The position numbers and the translations under genes are program-made. Shown here piece after piece: positions 8,479 through 29,774 of a DNA stretch of 32,000 nucleotides. Positions within the stretch are counted from its first letter, which is position 1. The number at the start of each line of letters is the position of its first letter. The notes below the pieces were generated by a model, which worked only from the letters and a program-made list of their open reading frames with translations, was not told the DNA's origin and made no database searches. The stretch comes from Bacillus subtilis subsp. subtilis str. 168 (GTDB taxonomy: Bacteria; Bacillota; Bacilli; Bacillales; Bacillaceae), in the NCBI RefSeq assembly GCF_000009045.1, contig NC_000964.3, positions 720,001-752,000 of the forward strand, written 5' to 3'.

Positions 8479-8731
8479 ATTGATCATAAGCTGGAAATAC
8501 CGTTGCAAACCTAGAAGGGAATAAAGAATAAAACGCTTTCAAAAAATAATTAAAGTAAAAATATTCAGAAAAATATTTCGTTTCTCCTTCTCCTCATTTT
8601 AGTATAAAATATATAGGGTATTGTTTCGAAAACACAGGCCTGTCTCAAGGCGTTTTGTTGCTTTAAAGGGCTTGTTTTTGATATGATCAGTATTATATGA
8701 CTTAACGGAGAAATATGTGGAGGTGGATCAT

Positions 8732-9022
8732 ATGTCACGAATTTCAATAGAAGAAGTAAAGCACGTTGCGCACCTTGCAAGACTTGCGATTACTGAAGAA
8801 GAAGCAAAAATGTTCACTGAACAGCTCGACAGTATCATTTCATTTGCCGAGGAGCTTAATGAGGTTAACACAGACAATGTGGAGCCTACAACTCACGTGC
8901 TGAAAATGAAAAATGTCATGAGAGAAGATGAAGCGGGTAAAGGTCTTCCGGTTGAGGATGTCATGAAAAATGCGCCTGACCATAAAGACGGCTATATTCG
9001 TGTGCCATCAATTCTGGACTAA
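8732..9022 (+). CDS. gatC: Glutamyl-tRNA(Gln) amidotransferase subunit C
   Basis: I prefer ATG 8732 ([18 protein letters not shown]...), about 5-7 nt after GGAGGTGG, over the GTG at 8717 used in the ORF track. This gives 96 aa. gatA follows immediately. Confidence 0.93.
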
Positions 9023-9037
9023 AGGAGGGACACAAGA

Positions 9038-10495
9038 ATGTCATTATTTGATCATAAAATCACAGAATTAAAACAGCTCATACATAAAAAAGAGATTAAG
9101 ATTTCTGATCTGGTTGATGAATCTTATAAACGCATCCAAGCGGTTGATGATAAGGTACAAGCCTTTTTGGCATTAGATGAAGAAAGAGCGCGCGCATACG
9201 CGAAGGAGCTTGATGAGGCGGTTGACGGCCGTTCTGAGCACGGTCTTCTTTTCGGTATGCCGATCGGCGTAAAAGATAATATCGTAACAAAAGGGCTGCG
9301 CACAACATGCTCCAGCAAAATTCTCGAAAACTTTGATCCGATTTACGATGCTACTGTCGTTCAGCGCCTTCAAGACGCTGAAGCGGTCACAATCGGAAAA
9401 CTGAACATGGACGAATTCGCCATGGGGTCATCTACAGAAAACTCAGCTTACAAGCTGACGAAAAACCCTTGGAACCTGGATACAGTTCCCGGCGGTTCAA
9501 GCGGCGGATCTGCAGCTGCGGTTGCTGCGGGAGAAGTTCCGTTTTCTCTTGGATCTGACACAGGCGGCTCCATCCGTCAGCCGGCATCTTTCTGCGGCGT
9601 TGTCGGATTAAAACCTACATACGGACGTGTATCTCGTTACGGCCTGGTCGCATTTGCGTCTTCATTGGACCAAATCGGACCGATTACACGTACGGTTGAG
9701 GATAACGCGTTTTTACTTCAAGCGATTTCCGGCGTAGACAAAATGGACTCTACGAGTGCAAATGTGGACGTGCCTGATTTTCTTTCTTCATTAACTGGCG
9801 ACATCAAAGGACTGAAAATCGCCGTTCCGAAAGAATACCTTGGTGAAGGTGTCGGCAAAGAAGCGAGAGAATCTGTCTTGGCAGCGCTGAAAGTCCTTGA
9901 AGGTCTCGGCGCTACATGGGAAGAAGTGTCTCTTCCGCACAGTAAATACGCGCTTGCGACATATTACCTGCTGTCATCTTCTGAAGCGTCAGCGAACCTT
10001 GCACGCTTTGACGGCATCCGCTACGGCTACCGCACAGACAACGCGGATAACCTGATCGACCTTTACAAGCAAACGCGCGCTGAAGGTTTCGGAAATGAAG
10101 TCAAACGCCGCATCATGCTCGGAACGTTTGCTTTAAGCTCAGGCTACTACGATGCGTACTACAAAAAAGCGCAAAAAGTGCGTACGTTGATTAAGAAGGA
10201 TTTCGAGGACGTATTTGAAAAATATGATGTTATTGTTGGACCGACTACACCGACACCTGCGTTTAAAATCGGTGAAAACACGAAGGATCCGCTCACAATG
10301 TACGCAAACGATATCTTAACGATTCCGGTCAACCTTGCCGGCGTACCGGGAATCAGTGTGCCATGCGGATTAGCAGACGGACTTCCGCTCGGCCTGCAAA
10401 TCATCGGAAAACACTTTGATGAAAGCACTGTATACCGCGTTGCTCATGCATTTGAACAAGCAACAGACCATCATAAAGCAAAACCTGAACTGTAA
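9038..10495 (+). CDS. gatA: Glutamyl-tRNA(Gln) amidotransferase subunit A
   Basis: 485-aa ORF with the amidase signature [14 protein letters not shown]...[23 protein letters not shown] upstream. Confidence 0.97.
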
Positions 10496-10508
10496 GGGGT
10501 GAAAAGAA

Positions 10509-11939
10509 TTGAACTTTGAAACGGTAATCGGACTTGAAGTCCACGTTGAGTTAAAAACAAAATCAAAAATTTTCTCAAGCTCTCCAACGCCATTCGGCGC
10601 GGAGGCGAATACGCAGACAAGCGTTATTGACCTCGGATATCCGGGCGTCCTGCCTGTTCTGAACAAAGAAGCCGTTGAATTCGCAATGAAAGCCGCTATG
10701 GCGCTCAACTGTGAGATCGCAACGGATACGAAGTTTGACCGCAAAAACTATTTCTATCCTGACAACCCGAAAGCGTATCAGATTTCTCAATTTGATAAGC
10801 CAATCGGCGAAAACGGCTGGATCGAAATTGAAGTCGGCGGCAAAACAAAACGCATCGGCATCACGCGCCTTCATCTTGAAGAGGATGCCGGAAAACTGAC
10901 GCATACGGGCGACGGCTATTCTCTTGTTGACTTCAACCGTCAAGGAACGCCGCTTGTTGAGATCGTATCAGAGCCGGACATCCGCACGCCGGAAGAAGCG
11001 TACGCATATCTTGAAAAGCTGAAATCCATCATCCAATATACAGGCGTTTCTGACTGTAAAATGGAAGAAGGCTCACTTCGCTGTGACGCCAATATCTCTC
11101 TTCGTCCGATCGGCCAAGAGGAATTCGGCACAAAAACAGAATTGAAAAACTTGAACTCCTTTGCGTTTGTTCAAAAAGGCCTTGAGCATGAAGAAAAACG
11201 CCAGGAGCAGGTTCTTCTTTCCGGCGGCGTCATCCAGCAAGAAACTCGCCGTTATGATGAAGCAACGAAGAAAACCATTCTTATGCGTGTCAAAGAGGGA
11301 TCTGACGACTACCGTTACTTCCCAGAGCCAGATCTAGTCGAGCTCTACATTGATGATGAATGGAAGGAACGCGTAAAAGCAAGCATTCCTGAGCTTCCGG
11401 ATGAGCGCCGCAAGCGTTATATCGAAGAGCTTGGCTTGCCTGCATATGACGCAATGGTTCTGACGCTGACAAAAGAAATGGCTGATTTCTTCGAAGAAAC
11501 CGTTCAAAAAGGCGCTGAAGCTAAACAAGCGTCTAACTGGCTGATGGGTGAAGTGTCAGCTTACCTAAACGCAGAACAAAAAGAGCTTGCCGATGTTGCC
11601 CTGACACCTGAAGGCCTTGCCGGCATGATCAAATTGATTGAAAAAGGAACCATTTCTTCTAAGATCGCGAAGAAAGTGTTTAAAGAATTGATTGAAAAAG
11701 GCGGCGACGCTGAGAAGATTGTGAAAGAGAAAGGCCTTGTTCAGATTTCTGACGAAGGCGTGCTTCTGAAGCTTGTCACTGAGGCGCTTGACAACAATCC
11801 TCAATCAATCGAAGACTTTAAAAACGGAAAAGACCGCGCGATCGGCTTCCTAGTCGGACAGATTATGAAAGCGTCCAAAGGACAAGCCAACCCGCCGATG
11901 GTCAACAAAATTCTGCTTGAAGAAATTAAAAAACGCTAA
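10509..11939 (+). CDS. gatB: Aspartyl/glutamyl-tRNA amidotransferase subunit B
   Basis: 476-aa ORF with a TTG start after AAGGGGTGAAAAG. The N-terminus is GatB-typical ([15 protein letters not shown]) and there is a C-terminal YqeY-like domain. Confidence 0.97.
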
Positions 11940-11940
11940 T

Positions 11941-11971
11941 AAAAAAGCAGCCCTTAGAGGCTGCTTTTTTT
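11941..11971. terminator. Bidirectional terminator between convergent gatB and yerO
   Basis: AAAAAAGCAGCC-CTTAGA-GGCTGCTTTTTT is a perfect hairpin flanked by an A-run and a T-run. The yerO stop codon lies inside the loop. Confidence 0.85.
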
Positions 11972-12823
11972 ATGGTCAAATTGAGATAAAGACAAGATGA
12001 GGGCCCGAAGCCTTTCAACTTCTTTGTCGTTGGTTCCGGCCAAATTGGACAGCATGCCTTTAATAATCGGCTTGCGCGGTTTATCCTGAGTCAATTCTTC
12101 CTCGATAACATCAAGTGACACGGTGATATCCTCGGGCAGCGTGCTGTTTTCTTTCACTTTCTGAATGTCCTCAAGCAGCTGGTCTTTTCCCGCAGGCATC
12201 GGGTTAAAAATGTCTTTTGATACAATCGGATTGAGTGCAGAACGGCTCAGCCCCTGTACAAGATCATCCAGTCTCTCAATAATAAAGGCTGAGATTTCTT
12301 CTGCATCGATATTAAGCTCACCGTTAAATACCATCACGTTCATATAGGAATGCACAATGCCTCTTGCCATGATGGACAGATCTGCGACATACCGCTCGAT
12401 TCCTTCGCCATAGGATACCAGCAAGGCGTTCCGGTACAGCTTATCCGTCTCCATGGTTACTTTGTAAAAGTATTGCTTGATTTCTTGATTTTCCGGAATG
12501 ATATTTTCGGTAAGCAAAAGAACGATAAAATCTTTATGATCGCGAAAATCCTCAAATTGAGCGCCAATTTGCTTTTTTAACACTTCCTTAGGCGGCTTTC
12601 CGGCGAGATCTTCTTCTATATTTTTCATTTTGTTCATAGACATACCGATATAATATTCACAGGCAGATAACAGCAGCGCTTCTTTCGATTTGAAGTGCAA
12701 ATAAAAAGCGCCCTTCGAAATGCCGCATTCACTGGCGATTTCTTGGATCGTCGTAGCTGCGAATCCTTTTTTCGCAAATAAACGAATGCTGGTTTTTATG
12801 ATTCTCTCTTTTTTTTCATTCAT
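11954..12823 (-). CDS. yerO: TetR-family transcriptional regulator YerO
   Basis: I prefer ATG 12823 (MNEKKERIIKTSIRLFAKKGF...), about 8 nt after AAGGGGAA. TetR HTH: GFAATTIQEIASECGISKGAFYLHFKSKEAL. The longer 325-aa ORF in the track would run into swrC and has no RBS. Confidence 0.88.
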   Translation of the reverse strand: MNEKKERIIKTSIRLFAKKGFAATTIQEIASECGISKGAFYLHFKSKEALLLSACEYYIGMSMNKMKNIEEDLAGKPPKEVLKKQIGAQFEDFRDHKDFIVLLLTENIIPENQEIKQYFYKVTMETDKLYRNALLVSYGEGIERYVADLSIMARGIVHSYMNVMVFNGELNIDAEEISAFIIERLDDLVQGLSRSALNPIVSKDIFNPMPAGKDQLLEDIQKVKENSTLPEDITVSLDVIEEELTQDKPRKPIIKGMLSNLAGTNDKEVERLRALILSLSQFDHKKSSL

Positions 12824-12889
12824 GACGTGCTTCCCCTTAATCCTTGAAAAATTTAGTAAAATTTTCTGGTATATGAGTTGACGTTGTTG

Positions 12890-12899
12890 CGTTATAACG
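12890..12899. promoter_or_regulatory. Perfect 10-bp palindrome CGTTATAACG in the yerO/swrC divergent region (candidate operator)
   Basis: The palindrome was read directly from the sequence. It sits between TTGACG (12878-12883) and a -10-like TAGTAT/TATTAT (12902-12910) upstream of swrC. Confidence 0.3.
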
Positions 12900-12915
12900 T
12901 TTAGTATTATATAGA

Positions 12916-15900
12916 ATGACCAGTCAGTCAATAAAAAATGTAATGGAGGATATGATGAACCACGTTATTAATTTCGTTCTGAAAAACAAATTCGCCGTAT
13001 GGCTGATGACGATTATTGTAACGGCAGCCGGCTTGTATGCGGGTATGAATATGAAGCAAGAGTCTATTCCTGACGTGAACATGCCTTACTTGACGATCAG
13101 CACGACATATCCGGGTGCAACACCAAGCCAAGTGGCTGATGAAGTGACCAAACCGGTTGAACAAGCCGTACAGAACTTGGACGGTGTCAGCGTTGTGACG
13201 TCGACGTCCTATGAAAACGCATCGTCGGTCATGATTGAATATGATTATGAGAAAGATATGGACAAAGCGAAAACAGAAGCAGCTGAAGCGTTAGAAAACG
13301 TCAACCTGCCTGATGACGCGAAGGATCCGGAGATTTCACGCTACAGCTTGAACTCATTCCCGATTCTGACGCTGAGCGTGTCCAGTGATAAAGATAATCT
13401 GCAAGAGCTGACGAAACAAGTGGAGGACAGCCTCGTTTCTAAGCTTGAAGGCATAGAAGGCGTTGCGTCCGTCCAAGTATCAGGCCAGCAGGTGGAAGAG
13501 GTTGAATTCTCTTTCAAAGAAGACAAACTGAAGGAATACGGCCTTGATGAAGATACAGTCAAGCAAGTGATTCAAGGTTCAGATGTGACAACTCCGCTTG
13601 GATTGTACACATTCGGAAATGAAGAAAAATCTGTCGTCGTCAGCGGCGATATTGAAACAATTAAAGATTTGAAGAATATGAGAATCCCGACGGCATCTGC
13701 TTCAAGTGCAGGCAGCAGCGCAGCATCTCAAGCAGGTGCGCAGAGTGCTCAAGCAGCCCAAAGCGCGCAAGCGGCAGCACAGGTGCAGCAAAGCGCAAGC
13801 ACAGCAGTGCCGACGGTCAAGCTTTCTGACATTGCTACAATTAAAGATGTGAAAAAAGCTGAATCCGTTTCACGCACAAATGGCAAAGACAGCATCGGCA
13901 TCAACATCGTCAAAGCAAACGATGCGAATACGGTAGAGGTTGCCGACGATGTCAAAGCTGAGCTGAAAAAGTTCAAAGAAGACCATAAAGGCTTCAATTA
14001 CAGCGCAACTCTCGACATGGCGGAGCCGATCACACAGTCAGTTGACACGATGTTAAGCAAAGCCATCTTCGGTGCTATTTTTGCGATTGTGATTATTCTC
14101 TTATTCTTAAGAGATATCAAATCAACATTAATTTCTGTTGTTTCAATTCCATTATCATTGCTGATCGCACTCCTTGTGCTGCAGCAGCTTGATATCACAT
14201 TGAATATTATGACGCTCGGCGCAATGACCGTTGCCATCGGACGTGTAGTCGATGACTCCATCGTTGTGATCGAGAACATTTACCGCCGCATGAGACTCAA
14301 AGATGAGCCGCTCCGCGGAAAAGCCTTGGTTCGTGAAGCGACGAAGGAAATGTTTAAACCGATCATGTCATCAACGATTGTGACAATCGCGGTATTCCTG
14401 CCGCTCGCACTTGTAGGCGGACAAATCGGTGAATTGTTTATTCCATTTGCCTTAACGATTGTTTTTGCGCTTGCCGCATCCCTAGTGATTTCAATCACGC
14501 TTGTGCCGATGCTCGCACACAGCCTGTTCAAAAAATCATTAACCGGTGCGCCGATTAAAGCGAAAGAACACAAACCTGGCAGACTTGCAAACATCTATAA
14601 AAAAGTATTGAACTGGGCGCTGAGCCACAAATGGATCACGTCTATCATCGCGGTTCTGATGCTCCTTGGAAGCTTGTTCCTCGTACCGTTAATCGGTGCC
14701 AGCTACCTGCCGTCCGAGGAAGAAAAAACGATGCAGCTCACATACAGCCCAGAACCGGGTGAAACGAAAAAAGAAGCCGAAAATGAAGCTGAAAAAGCGG
14801 AAAAAATCCTGCTTGACCGCAAGCATGTCGATACGGTTCAGTATTCATTAGGCTCTGGCAGCCCGCTTGCCGGAGGAGATTCTAACGGTGCGTTATTCTA
14901 TATCAAATATGAAAGCGACACACCTGACTTTGATAAAGAAAAAGATAACGTTCTGAAGGAAATCCAAAAGCAATCTGACCGCGGAGAATGGAAGTCACAG
15001 GACTTCAGCTCTTCAGGCAATAATAACGAATTAACATACTATGTGTATGGCGATTCTGAAAACGATATTAAAGACACGGTCAAAGACATTGAAAAAATCA
15101 TGAAAGATGAAAAGGATCTGAAAAACGTAAATTCAGGCCTTTCCAGCACATATGATGAGTACACATTTGTCGCTGACCAAGAAAAACTAAGCAAGCTCGG
15201 TTTAACCGCGTCTCAAATTTCTCAGGCCTTAATGTCACAAACATCGCAAGAACCGCTCACCACTGTGAAAAAAGACGGCAAAGAGCTTGATGTGAACATT
15301 AAGACAGAAAAAGACGAGTATAAGAGTGTGAAAGATTTAGAGAATAAAAAGATCACTTCCGCGACTGGCCAGGAAGTCAAAATCGGCGATGTGGCAAAAG
15401 TGAAAGAAGGATCAACATCAGATACCGTGTCAAAACGTGACGGAAAAGTCTATGCAGATGTCACAGGTGAGGTTACCTCTGACAACGTCACAGCCGTATC
15501 AGCTGCTATCCAGAAGAAAATCGATAAGCTTGACCACCCTGATAACGTATCGATTGACACAGGCGGCGTATCAGCGGATATCGCTGATTCCTTCACGAAG
15601 CTCGGTTTAGCGATGCTGGCAGCAATAGCGATCGTTTACCTTGTGCTCGTGATTACCTTCGGCGGAGCACTAGCGCCATTTGCGATTCTGTTCTCATTGC
15701 CGTTCACAGTCATCGGTGCCCTGGTCGGACTTTACGTATCAGGTGAAACGATCAGTCTGAACGCCATGATCGGTATGCTCATGCTGATCGGTATCGTTGT
15801 CACGAATGCCATTGTCTTAATTGACCGCGTGATTCATAAGGAAGCGGAAGGCCTGTCTACGAGAGAAGCGCTCCTGGAAGCCGGCTCTACACGACTCCGT

Positions 15901-18994: not shown

Positions 18995-19972
18995 CTATGC
19001 TGATGGAACTGTTGGTTCTCTAAAACGATAATTGATTTCAATGGTTCCATTTGCATGTACTTCTATTTCATCTACTAACAAATGAAGCATTTCGGGGGTA
19101 AGTGTACCTTCCTTCATGAATTTATCTAAGCTCTTTTTAAAATCAATTATTTCTTTTTCAATCTTTTGAAATTCTAGGTCCTTAGATAGTTGGTGAAGGG
19201 TAGTTTCAAAATTTGAAATATCTTCATTGGTGATATTTATGGCTAATTGGTAATCTTCTTTAGATATAACACCATTAGCAAGAGAGATAACTAAATTGGA
19301 TTTATCTCTCTTTTTATCGTTTAATTTTTCATTAATTTCGATTATCTTAGATTCGATTTTTTCTTTGTACTTTAACGCTTTTTCACTTAATTCTTTAAAA
19401 TAATTTTCCTTACTGAATTTCAAATATATCTTATTTAGGTTGGTTATTACTTTATCAGTTAAATCTATTTCACTTACGTAATGATCACTACATGCTTTTA
19501 AACCATGTTTATTATAACTTCCACAAACATAACCTTTTCGATTCTTTTTAAAATGCATTGACCTCCTGCAATCTTTGCAAACCGCAGTATTTGTAAAGAG
19601 ATGTACTTCAGCTTGAGGTCTCCTTCTTTTTCTAGTTATTAAAATCTCTTGTACAATAAGAAAGTCTTCTAAAGGTATGATTGGTTCGTGGCTTTTTTCA
19701 ATAATTATTTGGTTTTCTAGGTTAACTGACCTTCTTCTTTTACTGGTAACACTCGGTCTATATTCTCTACATTGTTGTAGTGTCCCAGTATAGTGAGGAT
19801 TTTCGAGAATTTTTCTTATTGAAGATCCGTGCCATTTGTCAGTAGCGTTCTTTTTGCGGGCAAGCTGCGAGGGACTAGTGACCCCTTCGTTATACAATCC
19901 CCTTGCTATTGCATCAAAGCCTTTTCCAGCAATATATTCTGAAAAGATTCTAATATTTACTATTTTCTCTGC
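18995..19972 (-). pseudogene. yefB: Large serine recombinase, N-terminally truncated (no catalytic resolvase domain)
   Basis: The translation (AEK)[31 protein letters not shown]...[17 protein letters not shown] matches the recombinase domain. It also has the Zn-ribbon CKDCRRSMHFKKNRKGYVCGSYNKHGLKAC and a C-terminal coiled coil. No resolvase catalytic domain is encoded upstream. The only start in the track is a TTG inside the domain. Confidence 0.8.
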
Positions 19973-20213
19973 GTTTGCTGAATTTGAGAGAGATATGATT
20001 GTAGAACGAACTCAAGAAGGTAAAATGTTGGCCAAGCAGAATCCGGATTTCCGAGAAGGAAGACCCAAAAAGTTCACAAAGCAGCAAATCAATCATGCAT
20101 TAACATTACTAGAAAATCATTCGTATAAACAAGTTGAAGATATGACTGGGATATCAGTTTCTACACTTGTAAGAGCTAAAAAGAAGAAAGCTGCTGAAGC
20201 TATAAATGGATAA
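19965..20213 (+). pseudogene. yefC: Small serine recombinase (resolvase/invertase) C-terminal fragment: helix E plus HTH only
   Basis: [20 protein letters not shown] (helix E) followed by [43 protein letters not shown] (Hin/resolvase-type HTH). The catalytic N-terminal ~100 aa is absent. The upstream part of ORF 19836..20213 is antisense to yefB and not resolvase-like. Confidence 0.75.
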
Positions 20214-20287
20214 ATATTGTGAATTAATTATTCAATATCTTGAGAAATTTTTATAAAAGTAATCAAAAGTTTAATGGGGGAAACGAA

Positions 20288-22927
20288 ATGGCGCTCATTG
20301 ATTTAGAAGATAAAATTGCTGAAATAGTGAATCGAGAAGATCATTCAGATTTCTTGTATGAATTACTCGGTGTATATGATGTTCCACGAGCTACAATTAC
20401 GCGCTTGAAAAAAGGAAATCAAAACCTTACAAAACGGGTTGGTGAAGTACACTTAAAGAATAAGGTGTGGTTTAAGGAGGCTAAGAAAGGAAAGCTCTTT
20501 GACGCCCTTATTGATATAGAACAACAAGTTGAATATCTTTCAGCTAAGCCACGATATTTATTAGTTACTGACTATGATGGAGTATTAGCGAAAGATACAA
20601 AAACATTAGAGGCTCTTGATGTTAAATTTGAAGAACTTCCTCAGTATTTCGATTTCTTCCTTGCTTGGAAAGGTATTGAGAAAGTAGAGTTTGAAAAGGA
20701 AAACCCCGCTGATATTAAAGCAGCCGAACGTTTTGCACGGATATATGATGTACTTCGTAAAGAAAACAATATTATTGAGACTAATAGAGGGTTAGATTTA
20801 TTTCTTATTCGTTTACTGTTTTGTTTTTTCGCAGAAGATACTGACATCTTCAAACGAAATAGTTTTACGAATTTAATTAAGACTTTGACTGAAGAAGATG
20901 GTTCAAATCTAAATAAATTATTTGCTGATTTATTTATCGTGTTAGATAAAAATGAACGAGACGATGTTCCATCTTATTTAAAAGAGTTTCCGTATGTAAA
21001 TGGCCAGTTGTTTACTGAACCACATACAGAGTTGGAATTTTCTGCCAAATCCAGAAAGTTAATTATTGAGTGCGGTGAATTATTAAACTGGGCTAAAATC
21101 AATCCTGATATCTTTGGTTCAATGATTCAAGCTGTTGCTTCTGAAGAAAGCCGTAGTTATTTAGGTATGCACTACACAAGTGTCCCCAATATAATGAAGG
21201 TTATTAAACCGCTTTTCCTAGATAAACTTAATCAGTCTTTTTTAGATGCATACGATGATTATACAAAACTTGAAAATCTTCTAACACGAATCGGCAAAAT
21301 TAAATTCTTTGATCCTGCATGTGGTTCAGGGAACTTTTTGATTATTACCTACAAAGAATTACGGCGTATGGAAATCAATATTATAAAACGACTTCAAGAA
21401 CTCTTGGGAGAGTATCTTTATGTACCTTCAGTAACTTTATCTCAATTTTACGGAATAGAGATTGAAGATTTTGCACATGACGTTGCAAAATTATCACTTT
21501 GGATTGCTGAACATCAAATGAATGAAGAATTAAAAAATGAAGTTCATAATGCAGTACGCCCAACGTTACCACTTCATACAGCAGGGGATATTCGTTGTGC
21601 AAATGCTATTAGGGTTGAGTGGACTGAGGTTTGTCCCGCACAAGGATCTGAAGAAGTATATGTTTTTGGTAATCCACCGTATCTTGGTTCAAAAAAACAA
21701 AACAAAGAACATAAATCTGATATGTTATCAATTTTTGGAAAAGTCAAGAATGGTAAAATGCTTGATTATATTTCTGCTTGGTTTTACTTTGGTGCTAAAT
21801 ACGCTTCAACTACAAATGCAAAAGTTGCCTTTGTATCAACAAATTCAGTTACTCAAGGGGAACAGGTTTCTATCTTATGGAATGAGTTATTCAAGTTTGG
21901 AATTCAAATCAATTTTGCCTATAAATCTTTTAAATGGGCGAATAATGCTAAAAATAATGCTGCGGTAATTGTTGTGATTGTAGGTTTTGGCCCGTTAGAT
22001 ACCAAAGTAAACAAGTATTTATTTGTTGATGAAACGAAAAAGCTAGTTTCTAACATTAGTCCCTATTTAACTGATGGTGAAAATATTCTTGTTTCTTCTA
22101 GGACGAAGCCAATTTCAGACTTACCCAAACTGCATTTTGGGAACATGCCTAATGATGGCGGAGGATTACTCTTTACCATTACGGAATATACAGACGCAAT
22201 CAATAAGTATCCTGAATTAGTTCCCTATTTTAAAAAGTTTATAGGTTCAGTAGAGTTTATTAATGGTGGTTTACGGTATTGTTTATGGCTTAATGAAGCA
22301 AAATATGAAAAAATAAAGTCTAATCCTCTAATACAAGAAAGAATCTCAATTTCAAAAAATCACAGGGAAAAATCAACAGATAAAGGAACGAATAAACTTG
22401 CATTAACTCCGTGGAAGTTTAGAGATACTCATGAAACAACTAATTATTCCATTGTTGTTCCATCTGTGTCTTCTGAAAATAGATTTTATATTCCAATGGG
22501 ATTAGCAGGTGCAGATACAATTTTGTCAAATCTAATTTATGTAATTTACGATGCAGAAATTTACCTTCTAGGCATTTTGATGTCACGGATGCATATGACT
22601 TGGGTAAAAGCTGTAGCCGGAAGATTAAAAACTGACTATAGGTACTCTGCAGGTTTATGTTATAACACTTTCCCTATTCCTGAATTATCAACAAGAAGGA
22701 AGAATGAAATTGAAGAAGCAATTCTTGAAATTCTTGATCTTCGTGAAGAGCAGGGTGGTACATTAGCAGAGCTTTATAACCCTTCAACAATGCCAATTGA
22801 ATTAAAAGTAGCACATGAAAAGTTGGATGGAATTGTAGAAAGAGCGTATCGTCAAAAACAATTTGAATCTGATGAAGAACGCTTAGAAGTATTGCTTAAA
22901 TTGTATCAAGAAATGACAGAACGGTAG
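20288..22927 (+). CDS. dnmA: MmeI-family (Type IIL/IIG-like) N6-adenine DNA methyltransferase DnmA/YeeA
   Basis: I prefer ATG 20288, 5-6 nt after the GGGGGAAA at 20276-20283, giving 879 aa. Motif I FFDPACGSGNFLI is at 21305-21343 and motif IV NPPY at 21671-21682 (gamma-class order). The protein has a long TRD-like C-terminal half and an MmeI/PglX-like C-terminal helix (LYNPSTMPIELKVAHEKLDGIVERAY). I recall it being reported as DnmA, with m6A at GACGAG. Confidence 0.9.
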   Translation: MALIDLEDKIAEIVNREDHSDFLYELLGVYDVPRATITRLKKGNQNLTKRVGEVHLKNKVWFKEAKKGKLFDALIDIEQQVEYLSAKPRYLLVTDYDGVLAKDTKTLEALDVKFEELPQYFDFFLAWKGIEKVEFEKENPADIKAAERFARIYDVLRKENNIIETNRGLDLFLIRLLFCFFAEDTDIFKRNSFTNLIKTLTEEDGSNLNKLFADLFIVLDKNERDDVPSYLKEFPYVNGQLFTEPHTELEFSAKSRKLIIECGELLNWAKINPDIFGSMIQAVASEESRSYLGMHYTSVPNIMKVIKPLFLDKLNQSFLDAYDDYTKLENLLTRIGKIKFFDPACGSGNFLIITYKELRRMEINIIKRLQELLGEYLYVPSVTLSQFYGIEIEDFAHDVAKLSLWIAEHQMNEELKNEVHNAVRPTLPLHTAGDIRCANAIRVEWTEVCPAQGSEEVYVFGNPPYLGSKKQNKEHKSDMLSIFGKVKNGKMLDYISAWFYFGAKYASTTNAKVAFVSTNSVTQGEQVSILWNELFKFGIQINFAYKSFKWANNAKNNAAVIVVIVGFGPLDTKVNKYLFVDETKKLVSNISPYLTDGENILVSSRTKPISDLPKLHFGNMPNDGGGLLFTITEYTDAINKYPELVPYFKKFIGSVEFINGGLRYCLWLNEAKYEKIKSNPLIQERISISKNHREKSTDKGTNKLALTPWKFRDTHETTNYSIVVPSVSSENRFYIPMGLAGADTILSNLIYVIYDAEIYLLGILMSRMHMTWVKAVAGRLKTDYRYSAGLCYNTFPIPELSTRRKNEIEEAILEILDLREEQGGTLAELYNPSTMPIELKVAHEKLDGIVERAYRQKQFESDEERLEVLLKLYQEMTER

Positions 22928-22938
22928 GTGTAAGGTGT

Positions 22939-24738
22939 ATGGAAAATATAATTGAAATTAATTATAACCAAACTGGTAAAAGTAAGAAAACAAATGAATA
23001 CGGTATGCGTGAAATGCAGGCAAGAGCTTTTGAAAAACGTAACTCACAATATCTCTTAGTTAAAGCACCGCCAGCTTCTGGGAAATCTAGAGCTTTAATG
23101 TTTATCGGTTTGGATAAGCTCATAAATCAAGGTTTGAGGAAAGTGATTGTTGCTGTACCTGAACGCTCTATAGGTTCTTCATTTAAAAATACGGATTTAA
23201 AAAGTTATGGTTTCTTTGAAAATTGGAAAGTTGATCCTAGAAATAATTTAACTGTTGGCGGAGATAACTCTAAGGTTAAATCTTTTGTTCGTTTTATGGA
23301 ATCGGACGATCAGGTGTTAATATGTACGCACTCTACTTTGCGATTTGCGTTTGAAAAAATTGATGATAAAGCATTTGATAATTGTTTACTTGCAATAGAT
23401 GAATTTCACCATGTATCGGCAGATGTCAATTCTCGATTAGGTGAATTGTTAAGAAGTATTATTCATAATTCATCAGCACATATTGTAGCGATGACTGGGT
23501 CGTATTTCCGTGGAGATTCTGTACCAATTTTATTACCAGAAGATGAGGAATTATTTGACAAGGTAACTTATTCCTATTATGAACAACTTGATGGATATGA
23601 ATATCTAAAGGGATTTGGTATAGGATATCACTTCTATCAAGGCCAGTACACATCAGCTATTAATGAAGTATTGGATACAAATAAGAAAACAATCGTTCAT
23701 ATTCCAAATGTAAACTCAGGGGAATCGACAAAGGATAAGTACGATGAAGTTGGTAAGATACTTGATATGATTGGTGAAGTTGAATATCAAGATGATGATA
23801 CTGGAATTATTTATGTTAAGCGACATTCTGACGGTAAAACATTGAAAATTGCAGATTTAGTAGATGACCAAGTTGGAAGAGAAAATGTCGTTGCGTATTT
23901 GCGTAATATTGAAGCCCTAGACGATTTAGATATAATTATTGCTCTTGGTATGGCGAAAGAGGGCTTTGACTGGCCGTTTTGTGAACATACTTTGACAGTT
24001 GGTTATCGTGGCTCACTTACAGAAATAGTACAAATAATTGGGCGCTGTACACGTGATAGTTACAATAAAACCTATGCTCAATTTACCAACCTAATCGCAA
24101 TGCCTGATGCAAAGGATGAAGTAGTGACTTATACAGTGAATACAATGCTTAAAGCTATTTCTGCCTCACTTTTGATGGAGCAGGTCCTTACACCTGACTT
24201 TAAATTTAAACGTAGAAGAAATGAAAGTGAAAAATCTTCTACTACAGGAGAATTATTCGTTAAGGGATTGAAAGAACCATCAACAGAAAATGTCAAAAAG
24301 ATTATTGAAAATGATATTAATGATTTAAAAGCAAAAATCATGCAAGATTCACAAGTCCAAAAAACATTTAGTGGAGAAGTAGATCCCAAAGTATTGAACA
24401 AAGTGTTGATTCCGAAAGTTATTCAAAAAGTATATCCAAATTTATCAGATGAGGAAATTGAGGAAGTTAGACAGCACGTTGTTCTAGATACAGTTATGAA
24501 AGGTGCTAAGTCTGAAGTTGTAGGAAGTAAAGAATTTATAAGAATGGCAGATAAGTTTATAAACATTGAGGATTTAGATATCAATCTGATTGATTCCATC
24601 AATCCGTTCCAAAAAGCATTTGAGGTTCTATCGAAAGAATTGAACTCACCAGTGCTAAAACTGATTCAGGAAACTATTGATGCAAAACGTATTAATTTTG
24701 ATGAAGATGAACTAGTATTCATATGGCCAAAGGTTTAG
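22939..24738 (+). CDS. yeeB: SF2 (ResIII/DEAD-DEAH-type) helicase-like ATPase YeeB, apparently 3'-truncated by an in-frame TAG
   Basis: 599-aa ORF starting 11 nt after dnmA. Walker A is APPASGKSRA (GKS at 23080-23088), motif Ia VIVAVPERSIG, motif II DEFHH (23398-23412), motif III MTGS and motif VI QIIGRCTRD. The frame stays open for 40 codons beyond the TAG at 24736-24738. Confidence 0.85.
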   Translation: MENIIEINYNQTGKSKKTNEYGMREMQARAFEKRNSQYLLVKAPPASGKSRALMFIGLDKLINQGLRKVIVAVPERSIGSSFKNTDLKSYGFFENWKVDPRNNLTVGGDNSKVKSFVRFMESDDQVLICTHSTLRFAFEKIDDKAFDNCLLAIDEFHHVSADVNSRLGELLRSIIHNSSAHIVAMTGSYFRGDSVPILLPEDEELFDKVTYSYYEQLDGYEYLKGFGIGYHFYQGQYTSAINEVLDTNKKTIVHIPNVNSGESTKDKYDEVGKILDMIGEVEYQDDDTGIIYVKRHSDGKTLKIADLVDDQVGRENVVAYLRNIEALDDLDIIIALGMAKEGFDWPFCEHTLTVGYRGSLTEIVQIIGRCTRDSYNKTYAQFTNLIAMPDAKDEVVTYTVNTMLKAISASLLMEQVLTPDFKFKRRRNESEKSSTTGELFVKGLKEPSTENVKKIIENDINDLKAKIMQDSQVQKTFSGEVDPKVLNKVLIPKVIQKVYPNLSDEEIEEVRQHVVLDTVMKGAKSEVVGSKEFIRMADKFINIEDLDINLIDSINPFQKAFEVLSKELNSPVLKLIQETIDAKRINFDEDELVFIWPKV

Positions 24739-24850
24739 GAATTTTATCGTTCAACTGGTAGAAGACCTGATTCAAAATCTGAAGACCCACTTGAAAGGCG
24801 TATGGGTGAAGCTGTATTATACATGCAAGAGCTTAGGAGGAAACGTGAAA

Positions 24851-25999
24851 ATGGCAAGTAATAGATACCATTCTATTAATGAAATCATGGAAAGTCAGCT
24901 GTTTTACCAAATCACAACACCACCTAAGAAAACACAAAAAGCCCAGTATGATCCTGAAGTTGAAAAGTTTTTGGAGATTATTGAATTCGTCAAAGAAAAT
25001 GGGCGAGAACCCCAAAAAGTCCCTACTGATTTAACTGAAAGAAGTTTAGCAAGTCGATTAATTGGGATTCGGAAAGATCCTGATCGTATGGAATATTTGA
25101 AAGAGTATGATGAAATTGGATTACTTGAAGTAAGATCGAAGGAACTAACAATTCCTAAAATTTCTTCAATTGATGATATTCTAAAAAGTGGCTTATCTGC
25201 ATTATTAGGTGATAATTTAAATAATGATATAACTAGGTCAATTTTTGATACAAGTTCACTTCAAAAGGTTACGACAATGCCTGAATACGTTGCAAAGCGT
25301 AAAAAAATAAAAGATTTTGGAAAGTTTGAAGAGCTATTCAAGAAGTGCCACAAGGAAATTACAGAGGGTAAACGAAAAATTTTAACTTTCAAAAATGAAC
25401 AAGACATACAGTCAAATAGTTTTTATATATTAAAAGGAGTTCTTCTTTATGTTGAAGATGTGGGAGAACGTAAAAAAGCAAAGGGAAAAACCAATGCTAG
25501 ACTTCGATGTATATTTGAAAATGGAACGGAATCAGATATGTTACTACGTTCCTTATCAGCGGAGTTATATAAACATGGTAGACGTGTGACCGACAATGAA
25601 GATACATTGTTGGATAATGTTAGAGAAGATGATGTTTCGACTGGCTTTATTTACGTACTAAAATCTTTGAGTACAGATCCGCAAATTAGTTCCATTAAGA
25701 ATTTATATAAGATCGGTTTTACAACTGGTTCAGTAGAAAATAGAATCAGGAATGCAGAAAATCAATCAACTTATCTTTATGCTCCAGTAGAAATTGTAAC
25801 CACATATCAAGTGTTCAATATGAATGCTAGCAAATTTGAGACGGCAATCCATCATGCGCTAGCAAATAATAATTTGGATGTTTCTATTTTGGGGGCAAAT
25901 GGAAAGATGTTAGTTCCTAAAGAGTGGTTCGTTGTCACACTTGAAGATTTACAAGCTGTAATAGATGAGATTGTGATGATGGTTCATCTTTATGACTAA
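24851..25999 (+). CDS. yeeC: T5orf172 (GIY-YIG-like) domain protein YeeC
   Basis: I prefer ATG 24851 (or GTG 24845) after the AGGAGG at 24835-24840, giving 382 aa. The C-terminal domain (about 25643-25975) reads GFIYVLKS...LYKIGFTTGSVENRIRNAE...FETAIHHAL...PKEWF. This is the T5orf172/MUG113 pattern of the GIY-YIG superfamily. The N-terminal ~260 aa are helical and of unknown function. Confidence 0.8.
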   Translation: MASNRYHSINEIMESQLFYQITTPPKKTQKAQYDPEVEKFLEIIEFVKENGREPQKVPTDLTERSLASRLIGIRKDPDRMEYLKEYDEIGLLEVRSKELTIPKISSIDDILKSGLSALLGDNLNNDITRSIFDTSSLQKVTTMPEYVAKRKKIKDFGKFEELFKKCHKEITEGKRKILTFKNEQDIQSNSFYILKGVLLYVEDVGERKKAKGKTNARLRCIFENGTESDMLLRSLSAELYKHGRRVTDNEDTLLDNVREDDVSTGFIYVLKSLSTDPQISSIKNLYKIGFTTGSVENRIRNAENQSTYLYAPVEIVTTYQVFNMNASKFETAIHHALANNNLDVSILGANGKMLVPKEWFVVTLEDLQAVIDEIVMMVHLYD

Positions 26000-26260
26000 A
26001 TTAGTATATTAGGATTTTAGTATTAATAATAATTTTATAGTAGACTATGAAAAAATTTGATGCCATAACAATAACTTGTTCCGCTTTGGAGTTTGTCACA
26101 ATTGTAGAATTATGTGTTGCGAGTATTAATAGGAAGGGGTTGAGCGACCGCAAAAAAAATTTTCGGTGCTGTCCGCAAAAGGGAGTTTGGGTGTTTTGCG
26201 TTATATTTGGTTGTGTGAAGGTTAGCGGAAACTCAATTCGTGAAGTTAGGATTGCGGTTA

Positions 26261-26566
26261 TTACGACTGAGTAGTTTCGTCATACTCTTTTAGCAGTTTT
26301 TCTGTCTTATGCATTTCTTTGAGCATCGGATTCATGTAGTCGTTAGCTGATTCTAGATATGCTCTCGTCAGAGTGTCTAGTTTATTTCTAACTTTAGAGA
26401 GGTCTTCTTCGAATTTTCCATCCGATGATTGAAGGATAAATTCTTTTGCCTCTTCATATCTTTTTAATATGTTTTTCACCATTGGAGTTGGATTCTTTTG
26501 ATTTATTGTTTTTATTACAGTGATTGTTAAATTTATTTGTTTTATTAATTCTTTTCTTACTGTCAA
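26261..26566 (-). CDS. yeeD: Small all-helical hypothetical protein YeeD (possible immunity-type protein)
   Basis: 101-aa ORF with a TTG start 7 nt after AAGGAG. It lies on the same strand as, and downstream of, yezA, yezG and yeeF. No motif was recognised. Confidence 0.6.
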   Translation of the reverse strand: MTVRKELIKQINLTITVIKTINQKNPTPMVKNILKRYEEAKEFILQSSDGKFEEDLSKVRNKLDTLTRAYLESANDYMNPMLKEMHKTEKLLKEYDETTQS

Positions 26567-26632
26567 GGTGATGCTCCTTTTAAATCTCTATTCTATTTGA
26601 GAGTTGCTATATCTGTTTAATGGTTTGATAGA

Positions 26633-26839
26633 CTACTCATCTTTATAATTTAGAGCAATTTTTACAACTTGTTCCGCTGTGTAATCTTCATTGCTCCAGA
26701 AAATTAAATCACTTGGTGCCGGATAAGGAACATTTTTCTCTAATAAATCGAGATATTCACTGACTTTCTCATCATCTAATGTTGGGTTCATTAATTCCTT
26801 TACAAGAAAGATCAACTCTTCTTTTGTCAGTTTATCCAT
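26633..26839 (-). CDS. yezA: Colicin/pyocin DNase-immunity-like protein YezA
   Basis: I prefer ATG 26839, 6 nt after GGAGGG, giving 68 aa. The sequence LTKEELIFLVKELMN...EYLDLLEKNVPYPAPSDLIFWSNEDYTAEQVVKIALNY resembles colicin E-type Im proteins (YTExEFxxLV...HPxGSDLIYYP...PExIV). A TATAAT with TTATAA 17 nt upstream lies at about 26957-26985 on the minus strand. Confidence 0.65.
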   Translation of the reverse strand: MDKLTKEELIFLVKELMNPTLDDEKVSEYLDLLEKNVPYPAPSDLIFWSNEDYTAEQVVKIALNYKDE

Positions 26840-27036
26840 TGTTTGCCCTCCAATAGATTGTATCTCCATTGATTTTACAAATGACTTTATTTCTTCTGAT
26901 AATGTTATAGGTTGTTTGCATAATGATAGATAATTGTCTTGAGAAAAGTTAGTCTCATTATAGAGTTTATTAATTGTATTTATAACAATATATTCATATG
27001 GAAAACCTCTAAAATATCTTTATTTTAGATTGGTTT

Positions 27037-27068
27037 ATAAAAAATAGCTCAGCAGAGTAGGGCTGAGC
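27037..27068 (-). terminator. Terminator-like hairpin after yezG
   Basis: On the minus strand the 7-bp stem GCTCAGC/GCTGAGC with a 7-nt loop is followed by a T-rich run (TATTTTTT), about 10 nt after the yezG stop. Confidence 0.5.
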
Positions 27069-27078
27069 CATTTTTTAA

Positions 27079-27549
27079 TTATAGACCGAGGTAACTAATT
27101 ACAAATTCTTTATCATCCTCATCTTCAGGCAAAATACCAAGGTTTTTATATTCCCATATTGCGATTCTTTCATATCCATCTAATTCTGAGGCTAAAATAT
27201 CATCATAATTATAATCTAATTGGAATTCTCCGCTACGATCCAATGTTAGTGTAAGGTTAGTCCAAACATCATCGTTATTATTTCTGTGTTCAGTTCTTAA
27301 TTCTTCAAAAAGTTCTCTTAGTTCTCTTAACAACGTCTTGAAAATATCCTTGCTTACGTTGTAATGGCTAGGTATATCTTGTGAATAAATAATTTGATTA
27401 TTTTCTGGTGTTCTGAAATGAAAAAGAACCATTGTGGAATCATCTAATACTTCTGCATAAAGATATATCTTTGTCCATTCACCAGGTATGATGTCATTGA
27501 GTTTTTCTCCAATAAGTTGATACAAATCTTGCATCTTCCTAGTTTCCAT
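27079..27549 (-). CDS. yezG: YezG/DUF600-family antitoxin (immunity protein) for YeeF
   Basis: 156-aa ORF starting 4 nt after the yeeF stop (an alternative ATG is at 27534). It is an acidic protein with the DUF600/EsaG-like pattern (WTKIYLYAEV...FHF...). This is the known YeeF-YezG toxin-antitoxin pairing in B. subtilis. Confidence 0.85.
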   Translation of the reverse strand: METRKMQDLYQLIGEKLNDIIPGEWTKIYLYAEVLDDSTMVLFHFRTPENNQIIYSQDIPSHYNVSKDIFKTLLRELRELFEELRTEHRNNNDDVWTNLTLTLDRSGEFQLDYNYDDILASELDGYERIAIWEYKNLGILPEDEDDKEFVISYLGL

Positions 27550-27553
27550 TCTT

Positions 27554-29563
27554 CTAACCCCCAGGCTGATTTTTAATAGAGACGCTTATTTCTTTTCTGC
27601 TCCCAATTTTGTAGGTTACATCGAAATATGATGGTCTAAGTGAATCCCCAGAATAGACTGGTTCTATTTGAACTGCTACTTTTTTAGGTGGTTTTTTGCT
27701 TAGGGCTTTTGCCCACTCCTGCTCCATCTCATACCATTTCCCACCGCTCCTATTAATCTGAGAATTCATCGGCACGATATTGTCAAACTGGCCTGAGCCT
27801 TTGAATTGGGTGGCGATTAAATGGCCGCCGTCATCGTCAGGCTTTCGGTCCTGGGGCTTTCCAGCATTCGTTTGTGCATATTGGTTTCGTTTCGCTTCTC
27901 CCAGCTGCAAGTCTGCTTTGACACTTGTAATTCTACCATAGTTGTCAGTCGTGTACGTGTAGCCTTCTTTTGTTTTGTAGATGATATTAGGCTTCAGCAC
28001 TTTCTTTCTGCTCCATCTTGCGAAATGCTCGCCGTATTTGACGGTTACCGGCGGTACATGTGGCGCTGGAGTTCGTCTTCCGCTTGATGACGTTCCGTAT
28101 GGTTTCGGCAGGATGACCTTGGCGAATTTTTGCAGTCCTTCTTTAAGCGTGACCCCGTTGACTGCGTTGTAAGGAACGCCTGCCGGCACTAAATCATGAC
28201 GGGGATGATACGGGAGAATATCCGCAAGTGTGAGATCTCCGATTTGATTTAACTTGGTTTTGACGTGTTTTTTTGATACTTCAATGCCTGTGTTTACTTT
28301 TTGTTTGATGTGATCAACGGTTTGTTTTGAGACTGTTATGGCTTTTTGGGCTGTTGCTGATTTGCTTGCTGCTGTTTTGACTTTGGTCGTCACTTTGGCG
28401 GCTGTGCCAGTTTTTGAGACGGCTCCTACGCCTTTTGTGCCGACAATTGATGTGACAACAGTGCCAACCGCATATGACACCCATCTTGCTCTTGAGTAGG
28501 TGTCACCATTCACCATGTCTTTTTGATACGATTCTTCGATTGCCGCTGAAATGGCTTCATACGTTTTGATCGGGTGAGCCATCGCTCCGGTAATCGCTTC
28601 AACGGTTCCTCCCGGATCTGTGACCATATCCCACAGGCCTACGACCGCGTCTTTCCCGGAATCATAAAGGCCGACGGCAACCCCTTTGAAGCCTGCTTCA
28701 AGCTCACGCGTGTTTTCAATTTGGGTGAAGTATCTCTGTTGTTCAGCTGTCAGATTTTCATAGCCGATCGTTTTTGCCATTTCGTAGAATTCATCGGCAT
28801 CTGCATAATCGTAGTTTTTCAGTCTTTCTTTCAGTTTCTCAATCTCGCGTTCCTTCGCTTCCTCTTTCTTAATCTTCAAGTAAGCCTCAGTCCGCTTTTC
28901 AATGTCGCCTTTTTTCTTATGTATGTCACTCTCACGGTACGCCTTGGCGTTGTAGTGGATGGGTGTGGCGTTTTTGCCTTTACCCGTTGCTTCTTGGAGC
29001 TTTTGGAAGTCGGATTTGATGAATTGTTCGTTTGGTTCAGACAGGGCGTATTCTGTTTTCAGGTCTTCGTCCAAGGCGTCCAATTTTTCCAGTGTTTTTT
29101 TGCGTTTGTCGTTGGCATCGGCCAGCTCGTCTTTGAAGGTTTCTGTTGAAAACAGGTCGAGCGGGAGGATGTCGTCGATATCGTTTAGGATGTCTTTCAT
29201 CGCTTTTTTCTGTTCGGACATGATGGATTTAGATTTTTTATTGGCATTTGCCAGTTCGTGCTCCAGGAAGGATTCTTCGATGTATGCGTCTGAGAGGCCT
29301 TTGTCTTCGGCGGCTCCGGCGATGCTGTTGAAAAATGCGATTTTCATGTCGATGTAGTCGATCCACTGGTCGGCGACGCCGACGTGGTCGTGATAGAATG
29401 CCTTGATGTTGCTGGCGCCTTTTCCTGAGAATTCACTGTCACTGAGATCAGCGACTCCTTTTAACGCTTTTCTCAAGTTGACCATTTGCGTTCTTAGTTC
29501 TTTGTACTCTTTTGCACGGTCTGTCGCTTCCGAAAGCAGTGTTTTCGCTTCAAATACTTTCAT
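27554..29563 (-). CDS. yeeF: LXG-domain polymorphic toxin YeeF with a C-terminal His-Me-finger (Endonuclease_NS_2-type) DNase
   Basis: I prefer ATG 29563 ([10 protein letters not shown]...), 8 nt after GAAGGG, giving 669 aa. The N-terminus is an LXG domain ([16 protein letters not shown]...). The C-terminus carries [35 protein letters not shown], typical of EsaD/YeeF-type nucleases. Confidence 0.9.
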
Positions 29564-29774
29564 GACCATTTCCCTTCTTTTGTTCGCTCAATATCAAAAT
29601 TTTACCACGGGTCGGGATAAGGTGGGGGTGAGAACGTGTTTTGGTGGAAAAATGAGTCATTTGGCATGTGTCTTTATTCGTGGAGGGATTGGAGGAAACA
29701 TGGTCGAAATGATATTGATTGCTACACATTTTTTGGAAGTTTGTATTCTATATTGTTTTTTAAGGAGCATGTTG

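Follow-up and report, generated by a model that had tools for sequence, protein, structure and literature searches.

The window analyzed here is a stretch of 32,000 nucleotides of the Bacillus subtilis 168 chromosome (NC_000964.3, positions 720,001 to 752,000) which, from the names of identical proteins and loci, corresponds to the yefA-yeeF region. It contains dnmA (yeeA), yeeB and yeeC, and it is the prototype locus of the YeeA-YeeB-YeeC cluster; both the trio and the hypothesis that it forms a restriction-modification (RM)-like system have been known since 2009. What is added here is the tracing of the short B. subtilis YeeB to a nonsense codon, the presence of paralogous helix-loop-helix modules in YeeB and YeeC, the decay of the YeeA nuclease triad at the level of single residues, and the recognition of the short Firmicute YeeC C-terminus as a clade trait. 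In window coordinates, the three genes are:

20288–22927, + strand: dnmA/yeeA, MmeI-family N6-adenine methyltransferase with fused target recognition domain (TRD), 879 amino acids; recognition and modification subunit.
22939–24738, + strand: yeeB, superfamily 2 (SF2) helicase-like ATPase, shortened to 599 amino acids by the stop codon TAG at 24736–24738.
24851–25999, + strand: yeeC, 382 amino acids in three modules, with a C-terminal T5orf172 (GIY-YIG superfamily) domain; putative nuclease.

The open reading frame (ORF) of yeeA opens at TTG 20240, and ATG 20288 is favored as the start by the N-termini of homologues (MALIDLED, MAIIDLED or MALIEIED). By the same argument, ATG 24851 of yeeC is favored over the upstream TTG of the mechanical ORF list. 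Some automated calls begin B. subtilis YeeC at Met13 (370 amino acids, 171 contigs; window 24851–24886), and the homologues back the start that gives 382 amino acids. The gap between yeeA and yeeB (22928–22938) is 11 nt long. When yeeB is read past its TAG, 40 codons are added up to a TAA at 24859–24861, and the gene then overlaps yeeC by 11 nt; intact relatives have yeeB/yeeC overlaps of 8–11 nt, which is the overlap that the window would have on read-through. The ribosome-binding site of yeeC, read from the sequence, lies in this same segment:

24835–24840, + strand: AGGAGG Shine-Dalgarno sequence of yeeC, 10 nt 5′ of the ATG, within the lost yeeB tail.

In intact genes, this AGGAGG doubles as two Arg codons of the YeeB tail. 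No terminator-like site was found at either junction, the search having yielded two such sites in comparison with 3.2 expected by chance; one weak stem of 5 bp falls within yeeB. The gene arrangement of the original prediction, i.e., three ORFs on the same strand, an 11-nt gap between dnmA and yeeB, an overlap of yeeB and yeeC on TAG read-through and the absence of terminator-like hairpins between the genes, is thus upheld by the ORF coordinates and by the site search at both junctions.

Concerning YeeB, its translation matched the Pfam families DEAD (3e-8) and ResIII (9e-7), while Helicase_C stayed under its cutoff. The SF2 ATPase motifs are intact, including Walker A (GKS), DEFHH, MTGS and QIIGRCTRD, and G48-K49-S50, D155-E156-F157-H158-H159 and other motifs are invariant in 34 homologues. 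All the 283 columns with at least 97% conservation are matched by the B. subtilis protein. The structure model displays a two-RecA core with a helical C-terminal region behind it. Foldseek recovered the generic two-RecA SF2 fold, with DEAD-box, RecQ, XPB, Hel308 and HsdR proteins all at about 1e-8, so no SF2 subfamily could be assigned from these matches. No nuclease domain was detected in YeeB by Pfam or in the structure model. Searches against the sequences of PDB chains, with the single sequence or with a profile, gave nothing useful, the best match being LGP2 at E 1e-3 and the rest being at chance level.

The C-terminus of YeeB is interrupted by a single codon, followed by a remnant that is no longer translated:

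24736–24738, + strand: TAG nonsense codon, codon 600 of yeeB; GAG (Glu) in the closest homologues.
24739–24861, + strand: untranslated 3′ remnant of yeeB, 40 codons and TAA, encoding a conserved helix-loop-helix tail.

The translation of the remnant, EFYRSTGRRPDSKSEDPLERRMGEAVLYMQELRRKRENGK, agrees with the tails of homologues at 35 of the 40 positions. The full-length YeeB homologues listed from outside B. subtilis (104 of at least 630 amino acids, 65–92% identical) have 635–649 residues, most of them 639–643, and align to the whole read-through translation; a few shorter matches were fragments or partial gene calls. At the position of the TAG the homologues have Glu, or Asn in one distant subgroup, and the tail is absent from 0 of those 104 proteins. 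On the other hand, every B. subtilis allele seen terminates in FIWPKV, four other B. subtilis genomes share the TAG together with an identical sequence downstream, and the exact short protein is indexed in 3024 blocks of an assembly collection. In the lost tail of 41 residues, P611, E620 and R622 are invariant among the 34 homologues, and W597, P598, K599, F603, S615, D617, P618, E625, A626 and R635 of YeeB are at least 90% conserved. In an AlphaFold2 (AF2) model of B. tropicus YeeB, the tail forms two helices (590–607 and 618–638), with a predicted local distance difference test (pLDDT) score of about 80. In a profile-profile comparison with hhalign, the tail was aligned to YeeC residues ~34–72 at 96.1% (E 3e-9), in comparison with 2% or less for 30 column-shuffled controls and 0.2% for another helical segment of YeeB. 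Judged by these profiles, the YeeB tail and the N-terminal module of YeeC are homologous. The comparison with homologues also indicates that the change of GAG to TAG at codon 600 is the only detectable lesion in the three genes, and that it is specific to B. subtilis alleles. A study of 2023 had noted that B. subtilis YeeB and YeeC are shorter at the C-terminus than the Vibrio proteins (Fernandez et al. 2023, PMC9973331); from the alignments, the shortness of YeeB noted there is this stop codon. The guess of the original prediction that a shortened yeeB could have silenced the system is therefore strengthened.

YeeC has, in this order, an N-terminal helix-loop-helix, a disordered linker, a beta-rich middle domain and the T5orf172 domain. 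The first and the third of these parts are located as follows:

24950–25066, + strand: N-terminal helix-loop-helix of YeeC, residues ~34–72; paralogue of the YeeB tail by hhalign.
25298–25600, + strand: beta-rich middle domain of YeeC, residues ~150–250; highly conserved.

Residues 265–374 matched MUG113 (5e-16; 59.5 bits, cutoff 22.3) and T5orf172 (1e-14; 55 bits, cutoff 20). T5orf172 falls within the GIY-YIG superfamily and constitutes the nuclease domain of Odn of phage ICP1 (PMC8263062). The positions corresponding to the GIY, YIG, Arg and Glu landmarks of the superfamily are invariant in 39 YeeC homologues, as part of the set G265, I267, Y268, Y286, K287, G289, R298, E330, E358, W359 and F360. 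The AF2 model of YeeC (pLDDT 76.5) includes the two helices of the N-terminal module (35–50 and 61–75, pLDDT 86–90) and the middle domain (pLDDT 80–89). A Foldseek search of BFVD with this model returned T5 Orf172 proteins at E 4e-6 to 1e-3. Sequence and profile searches of YeeC against PDB chains gave nothing useful, with matches at chance level, and no relative of solved structure was detectable by sequence for YeeB or YeeC. The middle domain is the most conserved part of the protein (e.g., NARLRCIFENGTESDMLLRSLSAELY), with N215, R217, L218, N224, T226, S228, L231–L235, Y240 and G243 invariant in the 39 homologues; in Foldseek it showed a weak likeness to EF-P/eIF5A/Tudor-like barrels, none at E ≤ 1e-3. 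Pfam, NCBIfam and PHROG yielded no family spanning the helix-loop-helix module, the middle domain or the entire YeeC protein. The YeeC family comprises 374 clusters (50% identity, E ≤ 1e-30). All 61 columns of YeeC with at least 97% conservation are matched by the B. subtilis protein, which is full length relative to Firmicute homologues (377–384 amino acids). The short C-terminus was considered as a second lesion and rejected: about 15 residues are missing from the whole Bacillus/Enterococcus clade, so it is a trait of the clade and not a lesion.

YeeA displays the whole MmeI architecture, with the Pfam matches MmeI_N (1e-21), MmeI_hel (4.5e-23), MmeI_Mtase (2.9e-102), MmeI_TRD (2.1e-76) and MmeI_C (1.5e-21), and phmmer aligned its residues 72–878 to residues 93–904 of MmeI (5hr4) with E 3e-185. 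Two of its parts deserve separate consideration:

20306–20761, + strand: N-terminal domain of YeeA, homologue of the MmeI nuclease domain with a degenerate PD-ExK triad.
22073–22687, + strand: target recognition domain of YeeA, MmeI_TRD E 2.1e-76; the variable part of the module.

The N-terminus covers positions 6–164 of the 181 of the MmeI_N profile (E 7e-16), and residues 1–71, outside the phmmer alignment to MmeI, still match this profile. When YeeA-type N-termini were aligned with three stand-alone MmeI-type enzymes from plasmids, the latter showed D-x9-11-E-x-K, whereas in the same columns all the YeeA-type sequences aligned have K or N for the Asp, keep the Glu (E53) and have H, L or I for the Lys. 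Sequence comparison thus indicates that the N-terminal nuclease fold is kept and its PD-ExK triad is degenerate. Since the Asp and the Lys of the triad are gone, YeeA fails a defining test of MmeI/Type IIG enzymes despite being filed there by databases. Another group of residues, D95, D103 and K105 (VTDxxxxLAxDTK; window 20570–20602), is 81–96% conserved in 61 YeeA-type proteins. Its interpretation as a relocated nuclease motif (D95...D103-x-K105) was rejected, as both Asp also occur in MmeI outside the catalytic segment, and the Lys does not. Of the 114 YeeA columns with at least 97% conservation, 113 are matched by B. subtilis, the sole difference being the conservative L361M. Functionally, DnmA makes N6-methyladenine at GACGAG, is alone necessary and sufficient for this methylation and influences gene expression (Nye et al. 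2020, PMC7261158), and no endonuclease activity of YeeA alone was seen (Morgan et al. 2009, PMC2731913). The original prediction had described YeeA as a methyltransferase with a TRD, which is correct and incomplete, since the degenerate nuclease domain and the rest of the MmeI architecture are also there. The domain content predicted for the three proteins was otherwise confirmed by the Pfam search, save for Helicase_C of YeeB, and all the motifs quoted are present in the translations (FFDPACGSGNFLI and NPPY in YeeA; GKS, DEFHH, MTGS and QIIGRCTRD in YeeB; FIY, YKIG and EWF in YeeC).

The relationship among the three genes in other organisms was analyzed with a YeeB profile scan that used one genome per species and gave at least 600 matches, at least 580 of them confirmed relatives. 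The linkage counts come from the best 80 of those at least 580 loci, with YeeB identity of at least 57% throughout. These 80 loci belong to Firmicutes, Proteobacteria, Bacteroidota, Campylobacterota, Planctomycetota and Chlamydiota, and also to Actinomycetota, Verrucomicrobiota, Spirochaetota, Chloroflexota, Melainabacteria and candidate phyla radiation lineages, more than 12 phyla in all. A YeeC homologue lies directly 3′ of yeeB in 75 of the 75 loci with at least 1.3 kb of downstream sequence, and of the 67 loci in which 3 kb or more of upstream sequence is available, 66 have a same-strand YeeA homologue 5′ of yeeB. The trio is thus inherited as one unit, with a near-universal linkage across more than 12 phyla. 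Between yeeA and yeeB, which are adjacent in 45 of 72 loci, the other 27 have 0.6–5.8 kb of same-strand cargo. The cargo includes RhuM in 7 loci and SLFN_AlbA_2 with HATPase_c_4 in 5, besides Abi_C, Fic, one more DEAD helicase and several ORFs to which Pfam assigns no family. Such cargo resembles that found inside Type I RM operons.

The three proteins do not diverge evenly. In comparison with three close relatives, B. subtilis YeeB is 90–92%, YeeC 85–86% and the flanks of YeeA 80–89% identical, whereas the identity is only 47–56% in the Pfam TRD segment and 54–60% in the adjoining part of the methylase. As the TRD is divergent while YeeB and YeeC are conserved, specificity diversifies and the motor and the nuclease stay constant, which is an RM-like mode of evolution. 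Co-occurrence of the three genes and variability of the TRD, both anticipated for a defense system in the original prediction, are therefore borne out, and so is the placement in defense islands or small mobile elements, as seen in B. tropicus and Enterococcus. In B. tropicus (locus 1–21246), the neighbors of an intact trio are genes for NACHT and Abi_C proteins, for an NgoFVII-like restriction enzyme and for the two members of Hachiman (HamA and a helicase), a setting typical of a defense island. The Enterococcus trio is found on a small integrative element (3226–13073 of the loci), inserted beside guaA, that also encodes an integrase, DUF3173 and a replication protein resembling RepSA, and the same element occurs in differing upstream contexts. 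A different arrangement was observed on the L. fermentum plasmid pLME300 (1928–5671), where, 3 nt after the gene for an MmeI-type enzyme that keeps D...ExK, a 'restriction endonuclease' of 313 amino acids is annotated separately; this pair may be another split variant of the MmeI family.

Returning to the window, the GC content is 0.30–0.35 over about 19000–27500, compared to 0.45–0.50 in the flanks. The border of this AT-rich island is marked by two recombinase fragments without the catalytic N-terminal domain:

18995–19897, − strand: serine-recombinase fragment (yefB/yefC-like), with Recombinase and zinc-ribbon domains and without the catalytic domain.
19836–20213, + strand: serine-recombinase fragment (yefB/yefC-like), with only positions 112–142 of the 145 of the Resolvase profile, plus a helix-turn-helix.

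The GC profile and the domain matches of these fragments agree with the AT-rich island beside dead recombinases that had been predicted. Convergent to yeeC, YeeF (an LXG toxin bearing an Endonuclea_NS_2 domain), the corresponding immunity gene YezG and YeeD occupy 26261–29569 of the − strand, where a small ORF with a weak Colicin_Pyocin-like immunity match was also observed in the same low-GC island. GACGAG occurs in the window at chance level (8 sites observed, 10.4 expected), and there is no such site within the three-gene operon.

Concerning the published record, Morgan et al. (2009, PMC2731913) distinguished two sets of MmeI homologues, of which the one without PD-ExK is exemplified by YeeA and 'invariably' has as neighbors two genes, one for a DEAD helicase like YeeB and one for a GIY-YIG protein like YeeC. 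In their proposal, the three form a Type I-like system that modifies a single strand: specificity and protective methylation come from the MmeI-like subunit, and scission from the other two. Nye et al. (2020, PMC7261158) found that deletion of dnmA was neutral and that plasmid transformation was not restricted. Fernandez et al. (2023, PMC9973331) reported conserved synteny and an enrichment of defense genes around DnmA homologues, observed that single deletions of yeeB or yeeC in PY79 left infection by the phages Nf, phi29 and SBS-PhiJ unchanged (the summary additionally lists dnmA among the deletions without phage effect), and labeled the locus a non-functional RM relic; one of the three phages has no GACGAG site. 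In Vibrio crassostreae, according to a preprint (Piel et al., 10.1101/2021.05.05.442762), yeeAB gives resistance to one phage subclade, and dnmA and yeeB mutants are each more phage-sensitive, as reported in PMC9973331. So, the idea of a split RM-like trio that the original prediction put forward stands as regards a single module and a fitting, putative division of labor, supported by linkage, TRD divergence and context, but its novelty does not, as the idea was published in 2009, tested in 2020 and 2023 and given support in Vibrio in 2021–22. Its remark that natural transformation would not reveal the restriction of double-stranded phage DNA had already been addressed, since the single-gene deletions were without consequence for Nf, phi29 and SBS-PhiJ. 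As for a match to a named defense system, PADLOC-DB 2.0 recognized only YeeA of the trio, as Type IIG (REase_MTase_IIG, 1165 bits); no named defense system with this gene set was found in the searchable literature.

Taken together, these results indicate, with a probability that we estimate at about 0.7, that B. subtilis carries at this locus its own copy of a widespread, horizontally mobile, three-subunit, ATP-dependent RM-like module, the restriction arm of which has probably been disabled by the TAG. YeeA/DnmA, with its own nuclease triad decayed, reads an asymmetric site through the fused TRD and methylates one adenine, as the literature has shown for GACGAG. On unmethylated foreign DNA, it would recruit or license the YeeB motor and the YeeC nuclease; YeeB would hydrolyze ATP and move along the DNA or remodel it, and YeeC would cut. 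YeeB and YeeC would thus supply the ATP-driven long-range step and the cutting that in Type I, Type ISP and Type III enzymes are housed in R subunits or domains, a parallel with Type ISP and Type I enzymes (PMC3553950, PMC4666363) that we infer by analogy. The helix-loop-helix shared by the C-terminus of YeeB and the N-terminus of YeeC could be an assembly adaptor. In B. subtilis, the TAG severs it from the motor and would uncouple YeeB, leaving methylation only. As this module is cut off, the restriction arm is probably disabled or much weakened with DnmA still methylating, and therefore the locus would behave as an orphan methylase, in line with the published experiments. Indeed, the neutral dnmA deletion, the unrestricted plasmid transformation and the unaffected phages in PY79 (PMC7261158, PMC9973331) fit this reading, and the negative phage tests of B. 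subtilis are possibly due to the loss of the conserved helicase tail.

Several points weigh against this interpretation. Translocation by YeeB and DNA cutting by YeeC are putative activities in every organism, and the adaptor role of the helix-loop-helix is conjectural. The shortened YeeB retains the whole ATPase core and may still work, and the negative phage results may be owed to the three phages chosen or to expression conditions. Among PDB structures, Foldseek matched YeeC to no solved GIY-YIG fold. GACGAG is not avoided in Bacillus phage genomes (observed/expected ratio 0.97; PMC9973331), and the accessible text of the Vibrio preprint (10.1101/2021.05.05.442762) names yeeA and yeeB, not yeeC.

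With these points in mind, it is conceivable, but unlikely, that the B. subtilis system is still functional, the truncation being irrelevant, and defends only against other phages or under other conditions (site orientation, expression states). A functional system would account for the catalytic motifs and highly conserved columns upstream of codon 600 being intact in the three genes, for yeeC having its own AGGAGG ribosome-binding site and for the shortened allele showing no further decay in all the genomes sampled; besides, just three phages, one of them site-free, were tested in B. subtilis, and the Vibrio locus is protective against one phage subclade only. Nevertheless, the 41 lost residues hold invariant and near-invariant positions across 34–104 homologues, and the tail is kept in every listed full-length homologue outside B. 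subtilis. Since the B. subtilis alleles hardly differ from one another, a recent origin may suffice to explain the absence of further decay.

The nature of the module could also be different. We consider quite improbable a trio that does not cleave its target and acts instead by a BREX/DISARM-like, methylation-guided exclusion or replication block, or by abortive infection, in which YeeC, once triggered, would do non-specific damage to nucleic acid of the host or the phage. The weak matches of YeeA to the PglX and DrmMI models recall such systems, in which nuclease-less MmeI-like methylases are BREX recognition subunits (PMC11842806), but they are limited to the methylase-TRD core and are far weaker than the match to Type IIG. 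The lack of motif avoidance in phage genomes (PMC9973331) and the conserved middle domain of YeeC, devoid of a family or a significant structural match, would be compatible with this mode of action; against it, there is no PglZ, BrxC, BrxL or DrmA/B/C in the window or in related loci, and the partner that never varies belongs to the GIY-YIG superfamily and has kept the catalytic Arg and Glu. Finally, yeeB and yeeC could be an independent helicase-nuclease pair that an orphan regulatory methylase merely adjoins. DnmA does methylate and affect gene expression on its own (PMC7261158), and other genes intervene between yeeA and yeeB in 27 of the 72 loci. Even with cargo, however, a same-strand upstream YeeA is kept in 66 of 67 loci, the nuclease triad is missing specifically from the YeeA type while stand-alone MmeI-type enzymes keep it, and in Vibrio (10.1101/2021.05.05.442762) resistance was assigned to yeeAB after single-gene inactivation, so we regard an independent pair as very improbable.

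The preferred interpretation, an RM-like module with its restriction arm disabled, has a more ambitious extension: the B. subtilis trio could be a dormant ATP-dependent RM enzyme of an uncharacterized class, a single codon short of activity, in which an MmeI-like subunit for methylation and specificity, its nuclease domain dead, would bring together a separate SF2 motor and a T5orf172 nuclease by means of the paralogous helix-loop-helix adaptors, and in which a reversion of the TAG at 24736 to GAG would restore restriction. We advance it tentatively, with the odds rather against it. If true, it would explain the published negative results and offer a tractable model for the whole family. The module occurs in at least 580 species-level genomes of more than 12 phyla, with defense shown in one Vibrio, and automated tools call the trio 'Type IIG RM' from YeeA alone, though YeeA cannot cut. 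B. subtilis would be the natural model organism for it, and the published negative phage tests all used the shortened helicase; if the nonsense codon explains them, reverting one base would make the 'relic' usable for experiments on a split relative of the Type ISP enzymes, and it would be a caution against calling the DnmA-like methylases of other species regulatory orphans.

The trio can be compared with several known systems. YeeA resembles the MmeI family (Type IIL/IIG) in its five MmeI Pfam domains, in an alignment of about 800 residues and in an asymmetric site modified on one strand, and differs from it in lacking the Asp and Lys of the triad and in its constant linkage to a motor and a nuclease-fold protein that are encoded separately. 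Judging from the sequences, the trio shares with Type ISP a nuclease-type domain, an SF2 helicase-like ATPase, a gamma-class adenine methylase and a TRD, and in both cases the site is asymmetric with one strand modified (for Type ISP, PMC3553950 and PMC4666363). However, a Type ISP enzyme unites everything, an Mrr-family nuclease included, in one polypeptide, whereas the trio consists of three polypeptides with a T5orf172/GIY-YIG-type domain, and YeeB gave no sequence match to the solved Type ISP chains. The likeness to Type I RM (HsdM, HsdS, HsdR) lies in the separate subunits, in the SF2 motor and, by analogy, in the probable dependence of restriction on the subunit for methylation and specificity. 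Unlike Type I, the trio has no separate HsdS or bipartite site, but a single TRD fused in YeeA and a contiguous 6-mer site; one protein bears its motor and another its nuclease, which is of a type other than PD-ExK, and methylation is single-stranded. BREX PglX and DISARM DrmMI are also MmeI-like methylase-TRD proteins without a nuclease of their own and with ATPase or helicase partners, although none of those partners (PglZ, BrxC and BrxL; DrmA, DrmB and DrmC) was found in the window or in related loci. The closest correspondence is with the group 2 YeeA-YeeB-YeeC cluster of Morgan et al. (2009). Like that group, the trio of the window consists of an MmeI homologue devoid of PD-ExK, followed by a gene for an SF2 helicase and then by a gene for a GIY-YIG-type protein; gene order, domain content and the RM-like hypothesis are the same, and the two do not differ in kind.

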